A stretch of 32,000 bases of DNA from Neisseria flavescens (lineage in GTDB: Bacteria > Pseudomonadota > Gammaproteobacteria > Burkholderiales > Neisseriaceae). The stretch spans positions 54,381 through 86,380 of the forward strand of contig NZ_LAEI01000041.1 of assembly GCF_001618065.1 (NCBI RefSeq). Reading direction: 5' to 3'. The position numbers and the translations under genes were made by a program. The number at the start of each line of letters is the position of its first letter. The stretch's first letter is position 1. Of this stretch, positions 4,945 to 27,734 are shown one piece after another. The notes under the pieces are model-generated. The model was not told the origin of the DNA, made no database searches, and was given only the letters and a program-made list of their open reading frames with translations.

Positions 4945-5979
4945 TTAGCCTTTCGCCAAATATTTGATTAAAGGTTTGGGCAAACCATAATCCGCCAAAT
5001 GTTCCGCTGATACCCAAAGGCCGTCTGAAAGATGTTCAGACGGCCTTTGTTGCGTCTGAAAAGGAGTAATCATCAATAAGCGGTGGGTCAGGCGGTGGGT
5101 AAATGTGGTTTGTTCTTCAAGGCCGTCTGAAATAATGCCGAAGCGTTCGGAGTAAGCATACAAATCGTCTAATTTTTCAAAACAGGGTACGCAATACAGA
5201 CCGCCCCAAATGCCTTTGGCAGGGCGTTTTTCAAGCAATAATGCGCCGTCAGTGTTATGAATAATCAGCCAGTAAAGCGGTAGGGTTTGCACTTCTGGAG
5301 CAGTTTTTTTGCGAGGCAGTTCGTCAATGCGGTTTTGTTTTCTTGCTTCGCAGATATCTGCCATAGGGCATTGATGGCACAAAGGTTTTGTTCGTTTGCA
5401 GACGGTTGCGCCCAAATCCATCAGCCCTTGTGTATAGGCAGGCATATCGGCGTTTTCAGACGGCAGCAGGCTTTCGGCAAGCGTCCAGAGCGAGTTTTCA
5501 AATTTTTTATCTTGCGGATTGCCGTCTTGGGCAAAGACACGGCAGAGAACGCGTTTAACGTTGCCGTCCAAGATGGTTTCGCGTCGGTTGAAAGCAAAGG
5601 CAGAAATGGCGGCGGCGGTACTTCTGCCTACGCCGCAGAGTGTTTCCAAGTCTTTGCGTTTGGGCGGAAAGATACCGCCAAATTGTCCGACGACTTGTTG
5701 CGCGGCTTTGTGCAGGTTGCGTGCGCGGCTGTAATAGCCCAAACCTGCCCACAAGGATAAAACCTCGTCTTGCGGCGCAGCGGCAAGCGATTGCACGGTT
5801 GGGAATTTGGCTAAGAAACGCGGATAGTAGTCCAATACGGTAGCAACCTGCGTTTGTTGGAGCATGATTTCTGAAAGCCAGACGGAATAAGGGTCTTTGA
5901 CCTGCCAAGGCAGGTTGTGGCGGCCATGCTGCCGTTGCCAATCGATGAGTCGTCGTGCGAAGGATGTTGGTGTGCTCAT
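4945..5979 (-). CDS. mutY: A/G-specific adenine DNA glycosylase MutY
   Basis: HhH-GPD region, 4Fe-4S cysteine cluster CKRTKPLCHQCPMADIC and a C-terminal NUDIX-like domain; 344 aa. Confidence 0.93.
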   Translation of the reverse strand: MSTPTSFARRLIDWQRQHGRHNLPWQVKDPYSVWLSEIMLQQTQVATVLDYYPRFLAKFPTVQSLAAAPQDEVLSLWAGLGYYSRARNLHKAAQQVVGQFGGIFPPKRKDLETLCGVGRSTAAAISAFAFNRRETILDGNVKRVLCRVFAQDGNPQDKKFENSLWTLAESLLPSENADMPAYTQGLMDLGATVCKRTKPLCHQCPMADICEARKQNRIDELPRKKTAPEVQTLPLYWLIIHNTDGALLLEKRPAKGIWGGLYCVPCFEKLDDLYAYSERFGIISDGLEEQTTFTHRLTHRLLMITPFQTQQRPSEHLSDGLWVSAEHLADYGLPKPLIKYLAKG

Positions 5980-8451: not shown

Positions 8452-9954
8452 TCAGCCTTGCATTTGTTTGGCTTGAACGGCAGTCAGGGCGATGGTGAAG
8501 ACGATGTCTTCAATCAATGCGCCGCGGGACAAGTCGTTAACCGGTTTACGCAAGCCTTGCAGCAACGGGCCTACGCTCAGGACGTTGGCGCTGCGTTGTA
8601 CGGCTTTGTAAGTACAGTTGCCGGTATTGAGGTCTGGGAAAACCAAAACGGTTGCTTGACCGGCGACAGCGCTGCCCGGAGCTTTGGATTGGCCGATAGA
8701 TGGAACGGTAGCCGCATCGTATTGCAGCGGGCCTTCGATGGCCAAATCAGGGCGTTTCTCTTTCGCCAGTTTGGTTGCTTCGATCACTGCATCGACATCA
8801 GGGCCGCTGCCTGAGTTGATGGTAGAGTAGGAAATCATGGCTACTTTTGGATCGATACCGAAAGCTTTGGCGCTGTCGGCAGATTGGATGGCGATGTCGG
8901 CCAGTTGTTCAGGCATTGGGTTCGGATTAACCGCGCAGTCGGCAAATGCCAATACTTGGTTAGGCAGCAACATGAAGAATACGCTGGATACGAGGCTTGC
9001 ACCCGGAGCGGTTTTAATCAGTTGCAGGGCAGGACGGATGGTATTGGCAGTAGTGTGGACTGCGCCGGAAACCAAACCGTCCACGTCGTTTTGAGCCATC
9101 ATCATGGTACCCAGTACGACGGTGTCTTGCAGCTGTTTGCGTGCATCTTCAGGAGTCAGGCCTTTGGATTTGCGCAATTCGCACATCGGCTCAACGTATT
9201 GCTCAACCAAAGTAGCAGGATCAATGATTTCCAAAGAATCAGGCAGGGAGATACCGCGTTCTTTCGCTACGGCTTCAACTTCTTCGCGGGTAGCCAACAG
9301 TACGCAACGGGCGATGCCTTTTTCGTGACAGATAGCGGCGGCAGCGACGGTGCGTGGTTCTGCGCCTTCAGGCAGAACGATGCGCATATCGGCTTTGCGT
9401 GCGAAATCGATCAGGTTGTAACGGAATTGAGCTGGAGACAGGCGTTTGGCTTCGCGTTTGGCCAAAGCGGATACATCTTGCAGTTTGTCGCTGGAGCCGA
9501 AGAAAGTCAGGCCGGTTTGCTCGGCAACTTGTGCGCCTAAAGCGGCTGCTGCGCCGTCAATGATAAAGCCTTCCAATAAGCCCGGGGAGTTGGTGTAGAG
9601 CTGTTTGGTGAGGTTTAATTGTTGGGCGACGGTGGCTGCGTCGGTGTTGTCGGATTTCAGCGCCAATACAACGCCTGCGTCCAAAGACAACGCCAATTCG
9701 ATGTTTTTGCCTGCCAAGAACAATTTGTCTGCATCAGGAGTGATGCCTTCGATAACGAGGTTATCTGCATTCAATGCTGCAACTTTACCGACAAGTGCGT
9801 CAAACCAGTCGTCGCTCTTGCCTTGAGCCAACAGGGCTTCTGTAGTGGAGTCAACGGCTTGGAAAACTTGTGCATTTAATGCCGCTGCGAATGCTTTTGC
9901 CGCTGCATCGGCGCTCAGGCCGGTAGATACCGGTGCGATCAGGATTTTTGCCAT
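8452..9954 (-). CDS. pta: Phosphate acetyltransferase Pta with a short N-terminal domain
   Basis: C-terminal PTA_PTB domain (IVLPEG..., ...[10 protein letters not shown]...). Start moved to the ATG at 9954 (MAKILIAPV), which follows the agagagga RBS. Confidence 0.9.
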
Positions 9955-10102
9955 TTTGTGTCCTCTCTTTCGGTGATTGTAGAAGGGTGTTGCTGGGGCG
10001 CAGCTGGTGCTGCATTTTATCACTTTGGGATAACATATACACGGTCATATTGACATATGTCATCAGGCCGTCTGAAAAGTATAAACGCAATGGACCAAGT
10101 CC

Positions 10103-10168
10103 ATCAATCCCCAATTGCCGCCAAAAGCTCGGCTTGATGTTCGGCAATCAGGGCATCATGATTTTCTC
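10103..10168 (-). pseudogene. Orphan remnant of the prfA 3' end (last ~17-21 codons plus stop)
   Basis: 10103-10156 aligns to 11973-12026 with 3 mismatches. Weaker similarity, with a 1-nt indel, continues to about 10168/12039. On the minus strand it reads ..[16 protein letters not shown], against ..[16 protein letters not shown] in the intact prfA. Confidence 0.75.
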
Positions 10169-10384
10169 TAAAAGTATCAGTTTACATATTTACTCAAAAT
10201 AAATATTTTTTAATTTTAAAAAAGATCGCACTATTTTAAATATACTGTTCATAGGGGAAATTCTGGTATTCAGGTAATTTAGAAATGGAGATCAGTGATT
10301 GAAGGTTAAGTCATAATTTTTGGAAGTATTAGAGTATCAGTAAAATAGAAATGAGTAAGACAAAGTTTGATTAATTCATTGGGA

Positions 10385-10418
10385 AAGGCCATCTGAAATT
10401 TTTGTTTCAGATGGCCTT
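10385..10418. terminator. Variant-DUS hairpin terminator after the DUF805 gene
   Basis: aaGGCCATCTGAAa-tttttg-tTTCAGATGGCCtt. Both arms carry the same variant (GCCATCTGAA), so pairing is kept. Confidence 0.6.
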
Positions 10419-10429
10419 ACTCTAGAAGG

Positions 10430-11065
10430 TTAGTTTTCAGGCATACTACCCCATTGATTATCCCCATTGAAGGATGGTTGGCACATCAAAACAATTAGCC
10501 AGATTGGGCCAATAATAGGAATAAGTATAATGAGAAACCACCAACCTGATTTTCCTATATCATGGAGACGGCGAATAACGACAGATAAAGATGGAATAAT
10601 TACAGCTAGAGCAAATAGGTAATATAGGAGGAAGAAAATATCTCCAAGACTTCTGCTAATTTCAGACATTATTATTGCGACAATAAAAATGGAAAAATCT
10701 GCAATTATTCTAAAGAGTGTATATCCCCAAAATTCTCGTTTGGATGCTCTCCCTGAAAATTGTGCATAACGTTTAGATAGCGTTTCCAAAAATAAGGCAA
10801 ACAGTGATAATTGTCCATTTTCATTTCTGGATTGCGCCACAGTATTGAATGCATTTACGACATTATTAGATGAACTGCTATTTAGTGCCTTGTAAATACC
10901 AATAGCCTGACCATCTCCATTAATATCAAAATCAACATTCATGCCTCGAGTAGGAATGTTTTGTTCTTTCCATTCTTCGCTTTTAAATGGATAACGCTTA
11001 CCATCCTCCCCGTTGATCAGACCACCACCGTTTTGAATTGAAAAGTCTAAAATTTGTCCCTTCAT
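10430..11065 (-). CDS. Membrane protein: N-terminal cold-shock-like beta-barrel fused to a DUF805 (YhaH/YhaI family) domain
   Basis: DUF805 signatures FSGRASKREFWGY and RRLHDIGKSGWW..IPIIGPIWL....C.P...G.N.WG, with 3-4 hydrophobic helices. N-terminal 60 aa: GQILDFSIQNGGGLINGEDGKRYPF...GMNVDFDI. ATG at 11065 with the aggag RBS; the track GTG at 11074 lies inside that RBS. Confidence 0.8.
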   Translation of the reverse strand: MKGQILDFSIQNGGGLINGEDGKRYPFKSEEWKEQNIPTRGMNVDFDINGDGQAIGIYKALNSSSSNNVVNAFNTVAQSRNENGQLSLFALFLETLSKRYAQFSGRASKREFWGYTLFRIIADFSIFIVAIIMSEISRSLGDIFFLLYYLFALAVIIPSLSVVIRRLHDIGKSGWWFLIILIPIIGPIWLIVLMCQPSFNGDNQWGSMPEN

Positions 11066-11083
11066 TTGTATCACTCCTAATAT

Positions 11084-11392
11084 TTAATTGATTTCTAAGT
11101 AGAAACTACTTTTATCTTTATTCTGCCATTTAATTGAGTAAGTGATGTTTTCACTTCCTTTTGTTGTGGTCAATTTGGCAGAACATACTCTTATTTCGGC
11201 ATCATGATTAACGGCAGTTTCTTCCACATCATCCAATGAAACAAATTGACCTAAAAGAAATGAGCGTTGGTTAATGATTTTTTTAACCAAATCTTCTGCA
11301 TCACTTGAACCGCATGAAGGTAAGCCCCCCATACAACCAGTTAATAACATTACTGGTAAAATCCCAGCAAAGAGATAGTGTTTAATTTTCAT
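11084..11392 (-). CDS. Small lipoprotein of unknown function
   Basis: Signal peptide plus canonical lipobox LLTGC. RBS gaggtg. 18 nt upstream of the DUF805 gene, so the two are likely co-transcribed. Confidence 0.7.
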   Translation of the reverse strand: MKIKHYLFAGILPVMLLTGCMGGLPSCGSSDAEDLVKKIINQRSFLLGQFVSLDDVEETAVNHDAEIRVCSAKLTTTKGSENITYSIKWQNKDKSSFYLEIN

Positions 11393-11430
11393 TTGGTCAC
11401 CTCAAGATTTAAAGTTTCATAAAAATGGAA

Positions 11431-11489
11431 AAGTACAGTAAAACTGTATGAAGTATTGCATTTAAGTATTTTTATGTCAAGAAGTACAG
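11431..11489. promoter_or_regulatory. Divergent promoter region with candidate operator repeats
   Basis: Palindrome TACAG-taaaa-CTGTA at 11434-11448. The octamer AAGTACAG is repeated at 11431-11438 and 11482-11489. The region lies between the divergent lipoprotein and XRE genes. Confidence 0.45.
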
Positions 11490-11533
11490 CAATACAATTT
11501 CAATTGAATCTATTTCTCTCTAATATCTTTTGC

Positions 11534-11872
11534 ATGAATATAAGTCGTGCAATTAGATTTTTGAGAAAACAAAAAGGTTGGACACAGCAGCAACTTGCTG
11601 ATTTTGCAAATACTTCGAAAAGTAATATCTCCAATCTTGAGAATGGTAATCAAGGATACAGTGAGGCTATCTTAAAATATCTTGCTGATGCATTGGGATG
11701 CCGTGTTTCGTCTATTTTTCTGCTAGCAGAATACTTGGAAAGACAGCAAAACAATACATTAAAGGATTTAGAAGAAATGCCGGTCGAACTGATTTTTTTA
11801 CAACTTCCTGAACCTTTACAACAGTCTTTTAAATTATTGATGATCCAGACCTTGGAGCAAATCTCAAAATAA
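11534..11872 (+). CDS. XRE (Cro/CI-type) helix-turn-helix transcriptional regulator
   Basis: HTH_3 pattern LRKQKGWTQQQLADFANTSKSNISNLENGN. ATG at 11534 (MNISRAIRFL). The upstream 26 codons in the track begin at a TTG and look non-coding. Confidence 0.8.
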   Translation: MNISRAIRFLRKQKGWTQQQLADFANTSKSNISNLENGNQGYSEAILKYLADALGCRVSSIFLLAEYLERQQNNTLKDLEEMPVELIFLQLPEPLQQSFKLLMIQTLEQISK

Positions 11873-11904
11873 ATACTGTTTTATAGGTTTGTTTGTTTTT
11901 AAAT

Positions 11905-11940
11905 AAAATCCGTCTGAAATTTACATTTCAGACGGATTTT
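11905..11940. terminator. Variant-DUS hairpin between convergent XRE gene and prfA
   Basis: aaaaTCCGTCTGAAat-ttac-atTTCAGACGGAtttt. Both arms lack the leading GC of the canonical DUS. Confidence 0.65.
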
Positions 11941-11972
11941 ATATTGGTAATGATGATCAGAGTGAGGCAAAT

Positions 11973-12039
11973 ATCAATCCCTCATTGCCGCCAAAAGCTC
12001 GGCTTGATGCTCGGCAATCAGGGCATTGGTGATTTCTTC
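11973..12039. repeat. Direct repeat partner of 10103-10168 (the functional prfA 3' end)
   Basis: See the pseudogene feature. The two copies are offset by 1870 nt. Confidence 0.75.
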
Positions 12040-13050
12040 CAAGTCGCCGTCCATCACAAAATCCAGTTTGTGCAGGGTAAGGTTGATGCGGTGGTCGGTC
12101 ACGCGGCCTTGCGGGTAGTTGTAGGTGCGGATGCGTTCGCTGCGGTCGCCGCTGCCAATTAGGGATTTGCGTTCGGCGGCTTCTTTGGCTTGTGCTTCGC
12201 GTTTTTGCGCGTCGTTTAAGCGGGCGGCGAGGACTTTCATCGCCTGTGCTTTGTTGGCATGTTGGCTGCGGCCGTCTTGGCATTCGACCACCATGCCTGT
12301 CGGCAAGTGGGTAATGCGGACGGCGGAGTCGGTTTTGTTGATGTGCTGACCACCAGCACCGGATGCGCGGAAGGTGTCGATGCGCAGGTCGGCCGGGTTC
12401 AGTTCAATGTCTTCCAGTTCGTTTGCTTCGGGCATGACGGCAACGGTACAGGCAGAGGTGTGGATACGGCCTTGGCTTTCGGTGGCAGGAACGCGTTGTA
12501 CGCGGTGGCCGCCGGATTCAAATTTCAGACGGCTGTATGCGCCCAAGCCGATAATGCGGGCGATGACTTCTTTATAGCCACCTAATTCGCTTTCGTTTGC
12601 GGAAACGATTTCAACCTGCCAGCGGTTGCGCTCGGCGTAGCGGCTGTACATACGCAGTAAATCACCTGCAAACAGCGCGGCTTCGTCGCCGCCCGTTCCG
12701 GCGCGCACTTCGATGAAGATGTTTTTGTCGTCGTCGGCATCTTTTGGCAATAGCAGTTTTTGCAATTCGGTATCGAGCGTGTCGATTTTGGCTTTGGCCG
12801 CTTCGATTTCTTCGGCGGCAAAGTCTTTCATTTCGGGGTCGGACAGCATTTCTTCGGCATCTGCCAAGTCGCTTTGCGCCAGCTGATAGTTTTGGAAGAC
12901 TTCGACTACGGGGGTCAGTTCGGCGTGTTCGCGTGTGAGTTTGCGGTAGTTGTCCATGTCGGACGTGGCTTCAGGCTGACCGAGCAGGTGCGTGACTTCT
13001 TCCAGTCGGTCGCTGAGTTGTTGTAGTTTTTCTAAGATAGACGGCTTCAT
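11974..13050 (-). CDS. prfA: Peptide chain release factor 1
   Basis: GGQ motif ([10 protein letters not shown]) and PxT-type decoding region ([10 protein letters not shown]). Start moved to the ATG at 13050 ([10 protein letters not shown]). Confidence 0.95.
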
Positions 13051-13152
13051 AAATTTTCCAAAATACGGATGCCGTCGAGTGGTCTGCAACGGCGAAATAA
13101 GGAGTCATTATAATGGGTTTGAATGAAAATTCAAAAAGATATGATGGATTGG

Positions 13153-22391: not shown

Positions 22392-22661
22392 TTATTTACG
22401 CAGACCCAGGCGGGTAATCAGTGAACGGTAAGTATCAGGCTGAGTACGGCGCAGGTAAGACAGCAGGCGACGACGTTGGCTAACCATTTTCAACAGGCCG
22501 CGACGGCTGTGGTGGTCTTTAGGGTTAGCTTTGAAGTGAGGAGTCAGGTCGTTGATGCGGAAAGTCAACAGAGCGACTTGTACTTCAGAAGAACCGGTAT
22601 CGCCTTCTTTGCGTTGGAAATCTTTAACAATTTGTGCTTTTTGTTCTACGGTCAATGCCAT
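22392..22661 (-). CDS. rpsO: 30S ribosomal protein S15
   Basis: [33 protein letters not shown]... is a typical S15 of 89 aa. Start moved to the ATG at 22661. Confidence 0.95.
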
Positions 22662-22870
22662 GATGGATAACTCCGAAAATAAAAGAACCTTTTTAGGTTC
22701 GGACAAGTTTGCCAAGCCAAACGACCTAAGCAAACTCCTAAGTGCCTTTTTATAAAGACGGGCGGATTATGCCACAATTTGTCTTTGTGTGCCACATCTT
22801 TTCAGACGGCCAAAAAAAGCGGCGATACCTTCCAGTACCGCCAAAGCTGCTTTGGTGATAAAACTAAACT

Positions 22871-23893: not shown

Positions 23894-25078
23894 TTAGTAG
23901 CCACCTTTATCTGCAGATGCTGCGGAAGCAGGCGCTGCTGCGGAAGCAGCTGCTGGAGCAGAAGCGGCAGCACCGGCAGGTTGGTAAGCGGTGTCGCTCA
24001 GTTTTTTGGTCATGATTTCAGGGTTTTCGTTACCCTCAACTTTCAATTGACCCAAAGCACCTTTGTTGAACGCACGGAAGATAGAGTGGTCAACTATAGT
24101 GTAGCTGCCTGGAATATCGACTTTGAATTCGATCATGGCGGCGCCACCGGCAGGAATCACAGTGCTTTGTACGTTTTCGTTAATCAGTTTACCACCTTCA
24201 ACATATACTTTGTCGAAGATTTCGCCGATAACGTGGAAAGAAGATACCAAGTTAGGACCACCGTTACCAACGTACATACGAACAGTTTCACCAGCTTTGG
24301 CTTTCAGGGCGTTGTCACCGGCGATAGAGCCTACGTGACCGTTGAATACAACGTATTCAGGTTGTTCGGCAATCGCTTTGTCCATATCGAAAGGTTGCAG
24401 GCCTTGAGCGCCTTTTTTACCTTTAGTATAGAAGTCGCCTTGTACGATGTAGAACTCTTTATCTACTTTAGGCAGGCCTTCTTTAGGTTCAACCAAGATC
24501 AAACCGTACATACCGTTGGCGATGTGCATACCTACAGGAGCAACGGCACAGTGGTAAATGTACAAACCGGCTTGCAGAGCTTTAAAGCTGAAAGTAGAAG
24601 TGTGGCCTGGGGCAGTGAAAGAAGCTTCTGCACCACCGCCTTGACCGGTAGCAGCGTGGAAGTCAACGTTGTGAGGAACGGTAGAAGAAGGATTGTTAGA
24701 GAATTCTACTTCTACGGTATCGCCTTCGCGTACACGAATCATTTGGCCCGGAACGTCGCCGTTGAATGTCCAGTAGTGGTATTCAACACCGTCTTCCATA
24801 GTCATGGTTTTTTCGACGGTTTCCATTTTAACGCGTACTTTAGCCGGATGATCGCGATCGATTGCAGGTGGAACTTCCGGAGCGTGAGTCATGATGGCAT
24901 CGACTACAGGCAATTCTGAAGAAGGAGTCTCGGCAGCAGCTTGTGAGTCAGAAGCAGCAGCAGGAGCTTCGGCAGAAGCGGTGGCAGCCGGAGTTTCAGC
25001 TGGTTTAGCAGCTTGTTCGCCGCATGCGGCCAGTGCAAATACAGAAGCGATAAGTGCAGCTAAGGTTTGGCGTTTCAT
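23894..25078 (-). CDS. aniA: Copper-containing nitrite reductase (NirK type), lipoprotein AniA
   Basis: Lipobox ALAAC. Cupredoxin copper ligands (HNVDFH, ..YHCA..HI.NGMYG). Ala/Ser/Pro-rich N-terminal linker and C-terminal tail. Confidence 0.93.
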
Positions 25079-25143
25079 GTTTAAAGTTTCCTTATTGTAA
25101 GAAAAGTTAAGTATCCTGATAGGATGGTTTGAAATTTTGTATG

Positions 25144-25185
25144 ATTATGTAGGCGCTTGTTTGGGTGTATTTTGACATAAATCAA
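25144..25185 (-). promoter_or_regulatory. Candidate class II FNR-dependent aniA promoter
   Basis: FNR box TTGAC-ataa-ATCAA at 25172-25185, one mismatch to TTGAT-N4-ATCAA. Minus-strand -10 CATAAT at 25149-25144. This puts the box centre about 41.5 bp upstream of the inferred start site. Confidence 0.6.
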
Positions 25186-25418
25186 ATTGTTCAATGAATA
25201 TGAATCTTTTAATCCTTAAATACTCCTTTAGTAGTATAAAAAACTAAACCGAAAAGTTTATTTTTGTGTGAAAATGTTAGTGTGGGCTTAACACAAAATA
25301 TAACAAAGGAGGAGTTATACAGGATAATAGGAATCAATATCATGTAAGTTAATGGTTTTAAAGGAATATTATTGACAAAATATTTCTTTACTTTTAAAAC
25401 CGTGATACAATCTTTAAC

Positions 25419-25435
25419 ATTCATATTTAATGAAT
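25419..25435. promoter_or_regulatory. Palindromic operator candidate (NsrR-type) over the norB promoter
   Basis: ATTCAT-attta-ATGAAT is a perfect palindrome. It sits just downstream of an extended -10 (TGaTACAAT, 25403-25411) and 44 bp upstream of the norB ATG. Confidence 0.45.
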
Positions 25436-25478
25436 TAATACCCAACCACTTTATTACCAAAATCAAGGAGTACTCAAA

Positions 25479-27734
25479 ATGGGACAGTACAAGAAGCTTT
25501 GGTACTTGCTGTTTGCCGTACTGGCAGTATGCTTTACCATTCTTGGTTATATGGGTAGCGAAGTCTATAAAAAGGCTCCGCCATACCCTGAACAAGTCGT
25601 TTCTGCATCCGGCAAAGTCCTGATGACCAAAGACGATATTTTGGCAGGTCAATCTGCATGGCAAACTACCGGCGGTATGGAAGTCGGCTCTGTATTGGGT
25701 CACGGTGCATACCAAGCTCCGGACTGGACTGCCGACTGGCTGCACCGCGAGCTGGTTGCATGGTTGGATCTGACTGCACAAGAAACTTACGGCAAAAAAT
25801 TTGACGAAGTTTCTCCTGAGGAACAAGCTGTTCTGAAAACCCGTTTGGCTGACGAATACCGCAACCAAAGCCGTATTAAGGAAGACGGTTCTGTCGTTAT
25901 CAGCGATACCCGCGTGAAAGCGATCGAAAGTATTCTGCCTTACTATCACGGTGTGTACAGCGACGATCCTAAGTTCCAAACTACTCGCGAACACTTTGCA
26001 ATGAAAAACAACACATTGCCAAGCCAAGAAGCGCGTGAAAAACTGTTCAACTTCTTCTTCTGGACTTCTTGGTCTGCTTCGGCCAACCGTCCTGACGAGA
26101 ACTTCACTTACACCAACAACTGGCCGCACGAGCCTTTGATCAACAACGTACCGACTACTGAAAACTACATGTGGTCCTTCACCAGCGTGGTATTGTTGCT
26201 GATGGGTATCGGCTTGCTGATGTGGGGTTACTCTTTCTTGACCAAACACGAAGAGGTTGAAGTACCTACTGAGGATCCTATTTCCAAAGTACAACTGACT
26301 CCTTCTCAAAAAGCGTTGGGCAAATATGTATTCCTGACTGTTGCGTTGTTTGTCGTACAAGTACTGTTGGGTGGTTTGACCGCTCACTATACTGTCGAAG
26401 GTCAAGGCTTCTACGGTATCGATACTGCCTTGGGCTTTGAAATGGCCGACTGGTTCCCATATGCGCTGACCCGTACTTGGCACATCCAATCCGCTATTTT
26501 CTGGATTGCAACCGGCTTCCTGACAGCAGGTCTGTTCTTGGCTCCGATTGTGAACGGCGGTAAAGATCCTAAATTCCAACGTGCCGGTGTGAACTTCCTG
26601 TACATCGCCCTGTTCATCGTAGTCGGCGGTTCTTATGCAGGTAACTTCTTTGCTTTGACCCACATCATTCCGCCTGAGCTGAACTTCTGGTTCGGTCACC
26701 AAGGTTACGAATACTTGGATTTGGGTCGCTTCTGGCAACTTCTGCTGATGGTCGGCTTGCTGTTGTGGCTGTTCCTGATGTTGCGTTGCACCATTTCTGC
26801 CTTTAAAGAAAAAGGTACAGACAAAAACCTGTTGGCTATCTTTGTAGCTTCTATGGTTGGTGTGGGTGTGTTCTACGCTCCTGGCCTGTTCTACGGTGAG
26901 AAATCTCCAATCGCTGTGATGGAATACTGGCGTTGGTGGGTGGTTCACCTGTGGGTAGAAGGCTTCTTCGAAGTGTTCGCTACTGCTGCCTTCGCATTCA
27001 TCTTCTACAACATGGGCTTTGTCCGCCGTAGTACTGCCACTGCTTCTACTTTGGCTGCTGCTGCCATCTTCATGTTGGGTGGTATTCCAGGTACATTGCA
27101 CCACTTGTACTTCTCTGGCTCTACCTCTGCCTCTATGGCAATCGGTGCATGTTTCTCCGCTTTGGAAGTTGTACCTTTGATTCTGCTGGGTCGTGAAGCT
27201 TACGAACATTGGTCTTACCAACACCTGTCCGACTGGGCGAAACGTCTGCGTTGGCCTCTGATGTGCTTCGTAGCAGTTGCCTTCTGGAACATGATCGGTG
27301 CCGGCGTATTCGGCTTCCTGATTAACCCGCCGATTTCCCTGTTCTACATCCAAGGTCTGAACACTACTGCAGTTCACGCTCACGCGGCTCTGTTCGGTGT
27401 GTACGGTTTCTTGGCTCTAGGCTTCGTATTGCTGGTTGCACGTTACCTGAAACCTAATGCTCAATTTGACGACAAACTGATGACTTGGGGCTTCTGGCTG
27501 CTGAACGGCGGTCTGGTGGGTATGATTGCCATCAGCCTGTTGCCGGTCGGCGTGATTCAAGCTTACGCTTCTATCACTCATGGTCTGTGGTATGCACGTA
27601 GCGAAGAATTCCTGCAAATGGAAATTTTGGATACCCTGCGTTGGGTTCGTACCGCTGCTGACTTGATCTTCATCGGTGGTGCTGTCTGCGTTGCTATCCA
27701 AGCTACCAAAATCGTATTCAGCCGCGATAAATAA
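25479..27734 (+). CDS. norB: Quinol-dependent nitric oxide reductase (qNOR) NorB
   Basis: 751 aa. N-terminal extension plus a 12-TM heme-copper-oxidase-like core with conserved His ligands. RBS aaggag. Confidence 0.95.
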   Translation: MGQYKKLWYLLFAVLAVCFTILGYMGSEVYKKAPPYPEQVVSASGKVLMTKDDILAGQSAWQTTGGMEVGSVLGHGAYQAPDWTADWLHRELVAWLDLTAQETYGKKFDEVSPEEQAVLKTRLADEYRNQSRIKEDGSVVISDTRVKAIESILPYYHGVYSDDPKFQTTREHFAMKNNTLPSQEAREKLFNFFFWTSWSASANRPDENFTYTNNWPHEPLINNVPTTENYMWSFTSVVLLLMGIGLLMWGYSFLTKHEEVEVPTEDPISKVQLTPSQKALGKYVFLTVALFVVQVLLGGLTAHYTVEGQGFYGIDTALGFEMADWFPYALTRTWHIQSAIFWIATGFLTAGLFLAPIVNGGKDPKFQRAGVNFLYIALFIVVGGSYAGNFFALTHIIPPELNFWFGHQGYEYLDLGRFWQLLLMVGLLLWLFLMLRCTISAFKEKGTDKNLLAIFVASMVGVGVFYAPGLFYGEKSPIAVMEYWRWWVVHLWVEGFFEVFATAAFAFIFYNMGFVRRSTATASTLAAAAIFMLGGIPGTLHHLYFSGSTSASMAIGACFSALEVVPLILLGREAYEHWSYQHLSDWAKRLRWPLMCFVAVAFWNMIGAGVFGFLINPPISLFYIQGLNTTAVHAHAALFGVYGFLALGFVLLVARYLKPNAQFDDKLMTWGFWLLNGGLVGMIAISLLPVGVIQAYASITHGLWYARSEEFLQMEILDTLRWVRTAADLIFIGGAVCVAIQATKIVFSRDK

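Follow-up and report, generated by a model that had tools for sequence, protein, structure and literature searches.

An AT-rich cassette of an XRE regulator, a lipoprotein and an OB-fold DUF805 membrane protein relocates among Neisseria and Kingella chromosomes

The DNA analysed here (the window) is a stretch of 32,000 nucleotides from Neisseria flavescens (contig NZ_LAEI01000041.1, positions 54,381 to 86,380), and coordinates given below without a locus name are positions in this window. Between pta (8452-10023) and prfA (11974-13089) lies an AT-rich islet, of which positions 10430-11872 hold a gene for an XRE regulator of the HTH_3 family, transcribed divergently from a lipoprotein gene and a gene for a DUF805 membrane protein. 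The G + C content of this cassette is 34.2%, against 47.6% for the window; the neighbours of the islet are pta, prfA and an Nramp gene. An earlier note on this DNA had described an HTH_3 regulator facing a two-gene operon with an 18-nt gap and strong ribosome-binding sites, encoding a 102-aa lipoprotein and a DUF805 protein with a soluble N-terminal domain, on an AT-rich cassette. This description held up: the three open reading frames (ORFs) lie where they had been placed, the ribosome-binding sites read AGGAG and GAGGTG, the regulator matches HTH_3 and the membrane protein DUF805, and the lipoprotein has a signal peptide and a lipobox. The operon encodes a lipoprotein with a small periplasmic domain of the disulfide type and an inner-membrane DUF805 protein with a cytoplasmic, cold-shock-domain (CSD)-like OB fold at its N-terminus.

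The DUF805 gene (10430-11065, minus strand) encodes 211 aa from the ATG that is common to all orthologues. Pfam DUF805 (PF05656) was matched over model positions 1-110 of 111 with E = 6.5e-31 and 107.5 bits, against a cutoff of 25.7. The domain (codons 100-206; 10448..10768, minus strand) contains the motifs GRAsKREfW and RRLHDiGKSGWW and hydrophobic stretches at 114-168 and 170-199. A low-complexity linker joins it to the OB-fold domain (codons 1-60; 10886..11065, minus strand), a five-stranded, CSD-like beta-barrel that is predicted to be cytoplasmic; the charge distribution likewise puts the N-terminal half in the cytoplasm. The AlphaFold2 model, built on an 18-sequence alignment, had a mean predicted local distance difference test score (pLDDT) of 81, with 83-89 in the OB region. 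In a Foldseek comparison with the PDB the barrel matched Bc-Csp/CspB (E = 2.6e-4 to 1e-3, TM score 0.73-0.80 normalised to the Csp chain) and also the structural-genomics OB domains 2k5n and 2kcm (probability 1.00, TM score 0.59-0.68), and 2kcm was the sole match in a profile search of PDB sequences (E = 0.027). The barrel is the best-conserved part of the protein, with I5, L6, D7, F8, G15, D21, R24, Y25, F27, E31, W32 and K33 invariant. Pfam CSD (PF00313) gave no match to the DUF805 protein even at E = 1, and in an alignment made by eye the positions of RNP1 (KGFGFI) and RNP2 (VFVHF) read GGGLIN and RYPFK, the aromatic residues being largely replaced. As modelled, the N-terminal domain is CSD-like in fold and not a member of the CSD family by sequence.

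The two structural-genomics matches belong to SO_1732 (2kcm) and ECA1580 (2k5n), membrane-anchored cold-shock-domain proteins which, like the cassette protein, start with an OB/CSD-like barrel. Their sequence similarity to the cassette protein is marginal, and their C-terminal membrane part is presumably DUF1294, not DUF805. In total 1223 homologues of the cassette DUF805 protein were found, and close homologues carry the JGI label 'YhaH (DUF805 family)'. A reading of the protein as a holin was rejected; the PHROG holin match was not significant (E = 0.012).

The lipoprotein gene (11084-11392, minus strand) encodes 102 aa with a signal peptide and the lipobox LLTG directly before C20. The site fits the pattern [LVI][ASTVI][GAS]C (MKIKHYLFAGILPVMLLTG directly before C20), by which lipidation is predicted, and the lipobox Cys is kept in the Neisseria and Kingella orthologues and in the relative P0007. 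In the AlphaFold2 model (pLDDT >80 for residues 25-102) the mature part forms a domain of about 80 aa, in which one helix packs against a sheet of four strands. Cys27 and Cys70 are invariant, and the domain is marked by the motifs LPxC...IRxC...YxIxW. No family in Pfam, NCBIfam, PHROG or PADLOC was matched by the lipoprotein. Foldseek returned only NTF2/cystatin-like and miscellaneous matches (best E = 0.11 in the PDB and 0.03 in BFVD), and because these were not significant no fold family was assigned.

A word-indexed search found 7 relatives of the lipoprotein, and a profile search of 1.84 billion representatives yielded 320 clusters. Over this domain, none of the 146 scanned family members matched a Pfam model. 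The lipoprotein and its relatives, about 320 clusters in all, represent a new family of periplasmic domains for which Pfam has no model. Among the best 150 of the 320 clusters, 39 were short lipoproteins, 59 carried the domain behind N-terminal transmembrane segments and 30 were tandem arrays; such arrays reach 5 copies (P0189-P0338). The fusion partners of the domain are rhomboid, zinc ribbon, GYF_2, DUF2628, SHOCT and DUF805, the last in two unrelated proteins (P0230 and P0324). Two relatives were seen in other settings. In a metagenome-assembled genome of a Lamellibrachia endosymbiont (L027 91-558 and 969-1600) a transmembrane-anchored domain with 43% identity occurs without a DUF805 gene and beside a CcdA/CcdB-like toxin-antitoxin pair (the pair was read from the translations alone). 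At L021 (77-1111) a tandem trio consists of a membrane protein, the lipoprotein P0007 (37% identity) and a secreted paralogue of weak similarity (24%), which suggests local duplication of the lipoprotein domain.

The existence of lipoprotein-DUF805 fusions supports a functional partnership of the two operon products. So does a second observation, namely that OB-DUF805 genes in Acinetobacter and Alkanindiges are often adjoined by a small lipoprotein gene that is not homologous to that of the cassette. This second lipoprotein family (VxVNRGxC...TDxGxYxF; L018 4436-4945, L054 4606-4959 and 5701-6504, L057 1167-1484, L052 6313-6888) recurs beside the OB-DUF805 gene and is matched by no Pfam model. 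Homology between the Neisseria lipoprotein and the 'VNRGxC' lipoprotein was considered and rejected, since hhalign aligned the signal peptides only; the latter looks like a non-orthologous replacement of the former. The two operon products may also be physical partners.

The regulator gene (11534-11872, plus strand) encodes 112 aa from the ATG used by the orthologues; the mechanically called ORF begins earlier, at a TTG at position 11456. Membership of HTH_3 (PF01381) was clear over residues 7-58 (E = 1.5e-11; 44.5 bits against a gathering threshold of 23). The helix-turn-helix (HTH) part (residues 1-60) is followed by a helical C-terminal extension of about 50 residues, and the protein has no sensor or peptidase domain. 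Its best PADLOC matches are the HTH proteins of defence systems (HTH_VI, 7e-16; CapH, 6e-9), with control proteins among the further matches, and NCBIfam gave RstR (5.6e-9). The CapH, control-protein and RstR matches lie under the family cutoffs and are confined to the generic HTH. An assignment to type II toxin-antitoxin systems of the HipB/Y4mF type was rejected: TIGR03070 reached 41.2 bits against a cutoff of 71.65, the regulator is divergent and not co-transcribed with the operon, and no known toxin family was matched in Pfam.

The divergent control region (11393..11533) holds the operon promoter and several palindromic elements. The promoter is the best sigma-70 match of the region (10/12 plus an extended -10 TG) and reads TTGACA-17-TGCAATACT on the minus strand, with the -35 TTGACA at 11480..11475, a 17-nt spacer and an extended -10, TGcAATACT, whose hexamer occupies 11457..11452. 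A perfect palindrome, TACAGT-AAA-ACTGTA (11434-11448), lies at the predicted start site. The inverted pair GTATTGC (11453-59) and GCAATAC (11489-95) overlaps the -10 elements of both divergent promoters, that of the regulator gene being a plausible, predicted TACAAT at 11493-98. Of the translation signals, GAGGTG stands 5 nt upstream of the lipoprotein ATG, and in the intercistronic spacer of 18 nt (11066..11083, minus strand) AGGAG (11078..11074) stands 8 nt ahead of the DUF805 ATG. Orthologous intergenic regions, from N. polysaccharea-type cassettes, from N. animalis and K. kingae and even from Acinetobacter populi, retain the -35, the TGCAATACT element and the repeat downstream of them, and the recognition helix of the regulator is nearly invariant from Neisseria to Acinetobacter. 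Because the conserved palindromes overlap the promoters and the regulator has no sensor domain, it is reasonable to infer that XRE represses the operon, through the palindromes at the -10 and the start site, and its own gene as well.

This arrangement resembles the repressor-gated cassettes of restriction-modification C-proteins, CBASS CapH and CTXphi RstR, in which a small Cro/CI-type HTH protein is encoded divergently from or upstream of the cargo and operators (here predicted) overlap the promoter. It differs from them in that there is no CapP-like protease partner and the cargo is unrelated. An orthologue of the regulator (58% identity) was also seen outside the trio: in Acinetobacter populi (L048/L049 2674-5051) it is accompanied by TGCAATACT operator-like motifs and is divergent from genes for a 156-aa protein and an HSP20 protein. 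There the XRE-HSP20 block and a GST gene are located between infC and rpmI-rplT, splitting a ribosomal operon that is normally tight.

The trio was found with one and the same layout at four chromosomal sites in Neisseria and Kingella: pta/prfA, pepN/relA, rho/rdgB and leuA/mltG. At the pta/prfA site the window is 96% identical over 12.3 kb, cassette included, to Neisseria sp. HMSC078H04 and N. flavescens CD-NF3 (L022/L023). The site between pepN and relA (or between pepN and a MafB toxin island) is occupied in N. polysaccharea, N. viridiae, N. uirgultaei and many metagenome contigs; there XRE is 83% identical to its counterpart in the window, and the two operon products are 69-72% identical to theirs. 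N. animalis carries the trio at rho/rdgB (47-62% identity) and Kingella kingae at leuA/mltG (45-63%); a close DUF805 homologue carries the label N. cinerea. At the DNA level the window is homologous to the pepN-site cassette over 10430-11873 (72% identity), with the stop codons of DUF805 and XRE as the exact limits. All copies are AT-rich compared with their hosts (34-40% versus 46-51% G + C), and all are flanked by uptake-sequence inverted-repeat hairpins that can also be read as direct repeats of 27-40 nt. A motif-based scan found the lipoprotein in 6 of 185,579 species representatives, which is a lower bound, since the pattern misses Kingella. A metagenome scan with the DUF805 profile, which used the RRLHD motif as its pattern, was dominated by generic OB-less DUF805 genes and gave 8 useful loci. 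A pattern search of metagenome contigs for the predicted empty pta/prfA junction gave 0 matches.

The three ORFs are intact in every copy examined, and gene order, spacing, ribosome-binding sites and promoter are kept from Neisseria to Kingella. For the DUF805 gene the ratio of non-synonymous to synonymous substitution rates (dN/dS) was 0.10-0.11. The lipoprotein gene had a proportion of non-synonymous differences (pN) of 0.16-0.17 with synonymous sites near saturation, and its single computable dN/dS was 0.06; for XRE, pN was 0.10 against the pepN-locus orthologue, with synonymous sites saturated. All three genes are under purifying selection. As the layout recurs in other genomes with a dN/dS of about 0.1 or lower, the trio is far beyond chance. 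The earlier note had staked its proposal in advance on co-occurrence outside this genome, and the genes indeed travel together at the four loci. The islet is a self-contained, horizontally relocating AT-rich cassette. Of the phrase 'mobile, regulated envelope module', relocation and the conserved elements of regulation bear out the substance; the cassette itself contains no integrase or transposase and no mobility gene, and for that reason the word mobile draws on its distribution.

At its borders the islet shows traces of its insertion. A direct repeat of 54 nt has its left copy at 10103..10156, a diverged duplicate of the last 17 prfA codons and the stop which marks the left edge of the inserted AT-rich DNA, and its right copy at 11973..12026 (minus strand), the functional 3' end of prfA. 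The repeat search showed the two copies to be 94% identical; the left, non-functional copy would end in ...AAIGD*, and functional prfA ends in ...AAMRD*. The repeat resembles a scar, left either by an insertion that carried a substitute 3' end with it or by integration through a single crossover. To the left of the cassette follows an AT-rich non-coding stretch of about 270 nt (10157-10429), which ends in a hairpin. Its spacer part (10157..10384) contains no ORF of at least 40 aa wholly inside and is not common to the cassettes at other loci, blastn homology to which begins only at 10430; Rfam matched no RNA family in the islet. The left hairpin is a perfect 14-nt inverted repeat (AAGGCCATCTGAAA / TTTCAGATGGCCTT; 10385..10418, minus strand), lies 12 nt past the DUF805 stop and carries a degenerate uptake-sequence-like motif (CCATCTGAAA); it is probably the terminator of the operon. 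The right border is formed by a perfect, uptake-sequence-like 18-nt inverted repeat (ATAAAATCCGTCTGAAAT / ATTTCAGACGGATTTTAT; 11903..11942), a probable bidirectional terminator for XRE and prfA. In the repeat search the two hairpins also paired as a direct repeat.

Such borders recall the 'minimal mobile elements' of Neisseria, reportedly described by Saunders and Snyder in 2002 and by Snyder and co-workers in 2007 as variable cassettes between conserved genes that are moved by transformation and recombination. Like these, the cassette is short, AT-rich, free of mobility genes, located between housekeeping genes, bracketed by uptake sequences and present in some species only. Unlike these, it occurs at four sites, which exchange through flanking homology alone does not explain, and the 54-nt duplication of the target gene resembles single-crossover or site-specific insertion.

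More distant relatives of the DUF805 protein were found in phage-related and defence-related surroundings. On at least 7 IMG/VR contigs (L028-L032, L038, L039, L042), OB-DUF805 genes of 28-39% identity are inserted in antisense orientation into gene transfer agent (GTA)-like clusters, where they separate the tape-measure gene from the tail gene that follows it. These clusters, in which GTA_TIM, GTA-gp10 and tail-tube domains were confirmed, are from high-GC alphaproteobacteria, and two of them (L039 and L042) hold two tandem copies. DUF805-only genes are located antisense among genes of the nin/Q-region type in lambdoid prophage fragments of enterobacteria (L033, L034 and L036, around position 5000), one of them adjoining a VapBC-like pair, and another DUF805-only gene lies directly beside an integrase gene (L044 5016-5729). 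In Acinetobacter johnsonii the OB-DUF805 copy is inside an island with integrase, AlpA, DUF932 and YqaJ genes. In A. baylyi (L050 5666-9649) its neighbours are a WYL regulator and three uncharacterised proteins; two of them match the PADLOC candidate systems PDC-M40B (4e-37) and PDC-M09A (1e-17), and the neighbourhood is possibly a defence locus of a kind not yet characterised. The match to PHROG 12855, 'moron, membrane protein' (E = 1e-23), covers the DUF805 part only.

A survey of the literature on DUF805 (PF05656) gave no functional study of the family, and only data on YhaH and YhaI. Infection by the phages PhiWec188 and PhiWec190 depends on the E. coli DUF805 protein YhaH (121 aa), and sensitivity returns when a wild-type copy is supplied (PMC12548472, PMC12695924). 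Expression of the E. coli genes yhaH-yhaI-yhaJ is induced by CpxR, yhaI being up 3.2-fold on arrays (PMC2731931). In Salmonella, YhaH increases as cells approach stationary phase, and the RpoS-dependent small RNA SdsR represses it along with heat-shock and envelope genes (PMC5137417). YhaH and YhaI share with the cassette protein the DUF805 domain (PF05656, COG3152), the motifs GRxxRxE(F/Y)W and RRLHDxGxSGWW and the topology of a small polytopic inner-membrane protein. They differ from it in their size of about 120 aa, in having no OB domain, and in their genes, which belong to the core chromosome, are controlled by Cpx and SdsR and do not form part of an XRE cassette. To our knowledge, no lipoprotein partner is encoded adjacent to yhaH or yhaI.

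Of the roles considered, we tentatively favour that of a possible inner-membrane barrier to the entry of phage or foreign DNA. XRE would bind the palindromic elements and keep both promoters at a low, homeostatic level, and a burst of expression may follow when the cassette reaches a new host cell. Together, lipoprotein and DUF805 protein would act across the inner membrane and the periplasm and alter the inner-membrane step of phage or foreign-DNA entry in the manner of superinfection exclusion, possibly by occupying, mimicking or modifying an inner-membrane factor of the DUF805 type that some phages need. The OB domain could serve as a cytoplasmic contact or sensor. This proposal is supported by the need of two phages for YhaH, by the match to PHROG 12855 and by the occurrence of relatives in GTA clusters, prophage fragments, an integrase island and a candidate defence locus. 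Superinfection-exclusion proteins (T4 Imm/Sp, HK97 gp15, P22 SieA, T5 Llp, phi80 Cor) are small inner-membrane proteins and/or lipoproteins; they are accessory cargo, do not depend on the lytic genes for their expression and act either on DNA entry or at the receptor. The cassette proteins show no sequence or fold similarity to them, and the cassette in the window lies outside a prophage.

Several observations count against an entry barrier. The DUF805 literature holds no experimental datum on any CSD-DUF805 protein or on the cassette lipoprotein; YhaH is a distant paralogue without an OB domain, and dependence of a phage on a protein is not the same as exclusion of phages by it. Binding of XRE to the palindromes is a prediction from conserved elements, and the side of the membrane on which the DUF805 C-terminus lies is ambiguous, the charge distribution suggesting out and the fusion proteins suggesting in. 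PADLOC-DB v2 contains no model that matches the lipoprotein or the DUF805 protein, nor their Kingella and Acinetobacter orthologues. Lipoprotein relatives are absent from 2.9 million IMG/VR viral contigs and 50,697 GenBank phage genomes (tblastn), and only two distinct GenBank phages carry any DUF805 piece. All four Neisseriaceae islet sites are among housekeeping genes, outside prophages and defence islands. Finally, induction of E. coli yhaH-yhaI by Cpx and the targeting of Salmonella yhaH by an RpoS-dependent small RNA (PMC2731931, PMC5137417) point to envelope stress, and the A. populi XRE orthologue adjoins the genes for the 156-aa protein and HSP20 instead of the operon.

These last points lead to a close rival, which we consider rather doubtful: an accessory for envelope stress or homeostasis. 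The pair of lipoprotein and DUF805 protein would then be an acquired paralogue of Cpx-type stress membrane proteins that stabilises or repairs the inner membrane and periplasm, at a level set by XRE and with no direct role in conflict with phages. Besides the control of YhaH by CpxR and SdsR and its rise in stationary phase (PMC2731931, PMC5137417), it is favoured by the HSP20 small heat-shock protein beside the A. populi orthologue, whose operator motif is shared with the cassette, by the location of the Neisseriaceae islets among housekeeping genes, and by the pairing of the lipoprotein domain with rhomboid, SHOCT, DUF2628, GYF_2 and zinc-ribbon modules, which are typical parts of 'stress membrane proteins'. 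All stress data come, however, from distant paralogues without the OB domain. Nor does this explanation account for the sporadic distribution (at least 6 of 185,579 species representatives), the use of four insertion sites, an AT-richness that persists, a dedicated repressor lacking a sensor domain, or the copies in GTA clusters, prophage fragments and integrase islands. Unlikely in our judgement is an abortive-infection or toxic effector, in which the OB domain senses phage nucleic acid or protein and switches DUF805 to membrane damage, while the lipoprotein modulates it and XRE nearly silences the operon. A small membrane protein that is carried on a mobile AT-rich cassette and tightly controlled by a repressor would suit such a role, as would the fusion of an OB/CSD fold, a classic nucleic-acid-binding module, to a membrane domain. 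The regulator's best PADLOC matches (HTH_VI 7e-16, CapH 6e-9), the weak PHROG holin match (E = 0.012) and the candidate defence genes beside the A. baylyi copy point the same way. However, the RNP1/RNP2 aromatics are largely replaced (GGGLIN versus KGFGFI) with no Pfam CSD match at E = 1, the effector has no PADLOC match, the holin match is not significant, and constitutive expression of DUF805 paralogues such as YhaH is not toxic.

GTA DNA enters recipient cells via competence proteins, and a membrane-tethered OB domain might meet single-stranded DNA (ssDNA) from the competence channel and promote or restrict transformation or GTA transfer. The closest full-length homologues do occur in the naturally transformable Neisseria, Kingella and Acinetobacter, A. 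baylyi included, more distant ones are embedded in GTA clusters, DNA-uptake-sequence hairpins bracket the cassettes, and the OB fold matches binders of ssDNA and RNA. We nevertheless hold this role to be very unlikely: the taxonomic pattern may just mirror how close these lineages are to the query in the phylogeny, hairpins of uptake sequences commonly serve Neisseria as terminators, conservation of the residues that bind nucleic acid is poor, the adjacent genes include none for competence, and in the motif-based scan the module was absent from most competent Neisseria species representatives. An equally slim chance is given to a novel type of two-part envelope gate for incoming nucleic acid, in which a channel-associated DUF805 protein, with an OB domain that captures or senses ssDNA, is coupled to the periplasmic lipoprotein; the ssDNA could come from natural transformation, GTA or filamentous phage. 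If true, such a gate would explain OB-DUF805 genes in competent Neisseriaceae and Moraxellaceae and in GTA tail clusters, and would assign a first molecular function both to DUF805 and to the new periplasmic domain. That the islet is a functionless, decaying remnant of some larger mobile element is hardly credible and was already disfavoured. Such a remnant would fit the missing mobility genes and the additional 270-nt non-coding spacer and duplicated gene end beside the islet; against it stand the intact ORFs in every copy, non-synonymous change far under synonymous in all three genes, and the conservation of order, spacing, ribosome-binding sites and promoter from Neisseria to Kingella. The probability left over by these five ranked roles (the barrier, the stress accessory, the toxic effector, the ssDNA factor and the remnant) is assigned to a role not yet imagined.

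Known systems were compared with the cassette as well. A known anti-phage defence system was rejected, there being no effector match in PADLOC-DB v2 and only generic HTH matches for the regulator; of the three proteins only the HTH protein was matched. A prophage moron was rejected by location: the window islet is flanked by pta, prfA and Nramp, and the other Neisseriaceae loci are housekeeping too. Distant DUF805 relatives do occupy moron-like locations, in GTA clusters and lambdoid fragments. A spanin pair of the Rz/Rz1 type does not fit either, since the polytopic membrane protein has its OB domain in the cytoplasm and exposes hardly any mass to the periplasm, the lipoprotein folds into an alpha/beta domain, and lysis genes are absent nearby. 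Judged by its sequence, the cassette appears to be built from known parts, namely XRE-gated accessory cargo and a DUF805 membrane protein, into a whole that no known defence, toxin-antitoxin, spanin or prophage-moron family seems to fit.

Two claims of the earlier note are touched by these comparisons. Its statement that neither operon product has an assigned function stands, as no search of Pfam, NCBIfam, PADLOC or PHROG places the trio in a characterised pathway. The likeness it drew to phage moron, superinfection-exclusion or abortive-infection modules has weak backing. It gains some support from PHROG 12855, the GTA and prophage copies, the Acinetobacter island, the candidate defence genes and the phage dependence on YhaH. 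Against it, the window islet, with its flanks of pta, prfA and Nramp, is sited in neither a prophage nor a defence island, PADLOC matches the HTH only, the lipoprotein is absent from phages and DUF805 is very rare in them.

DUF805 is a large membrane-protein family whose molecular function is unassigned (more than 1,200 clusters were obtained from this query alone), and its first phenotype, the need of two phages for YhaH, dates only from 2025. The cassette is a compact, genetically tractable version of it, with its own repressor, a periplasmic partner dedicated to it and an OB domain that hints at a ligand. Control of phage or DNA entry, if true, would extend the short list of Neisseria defences by a barrier at the inner membrane and would explain the GTA-embedded DUF805 genes; an envelope-stress device would be a modest addition to the biology of the accessory genome.

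Elsewhere in the window, two further features were observed. The sole Rfam family at the gathering threshold in the whole window is a ribosomal protein S15 leader (RF00114, 58.6 bits) at 22605-22728 on the minus strand. A second sharp AT-rich patch, with 31% G + C compared with about 48%, is located between large ORFs at 25001-25500.

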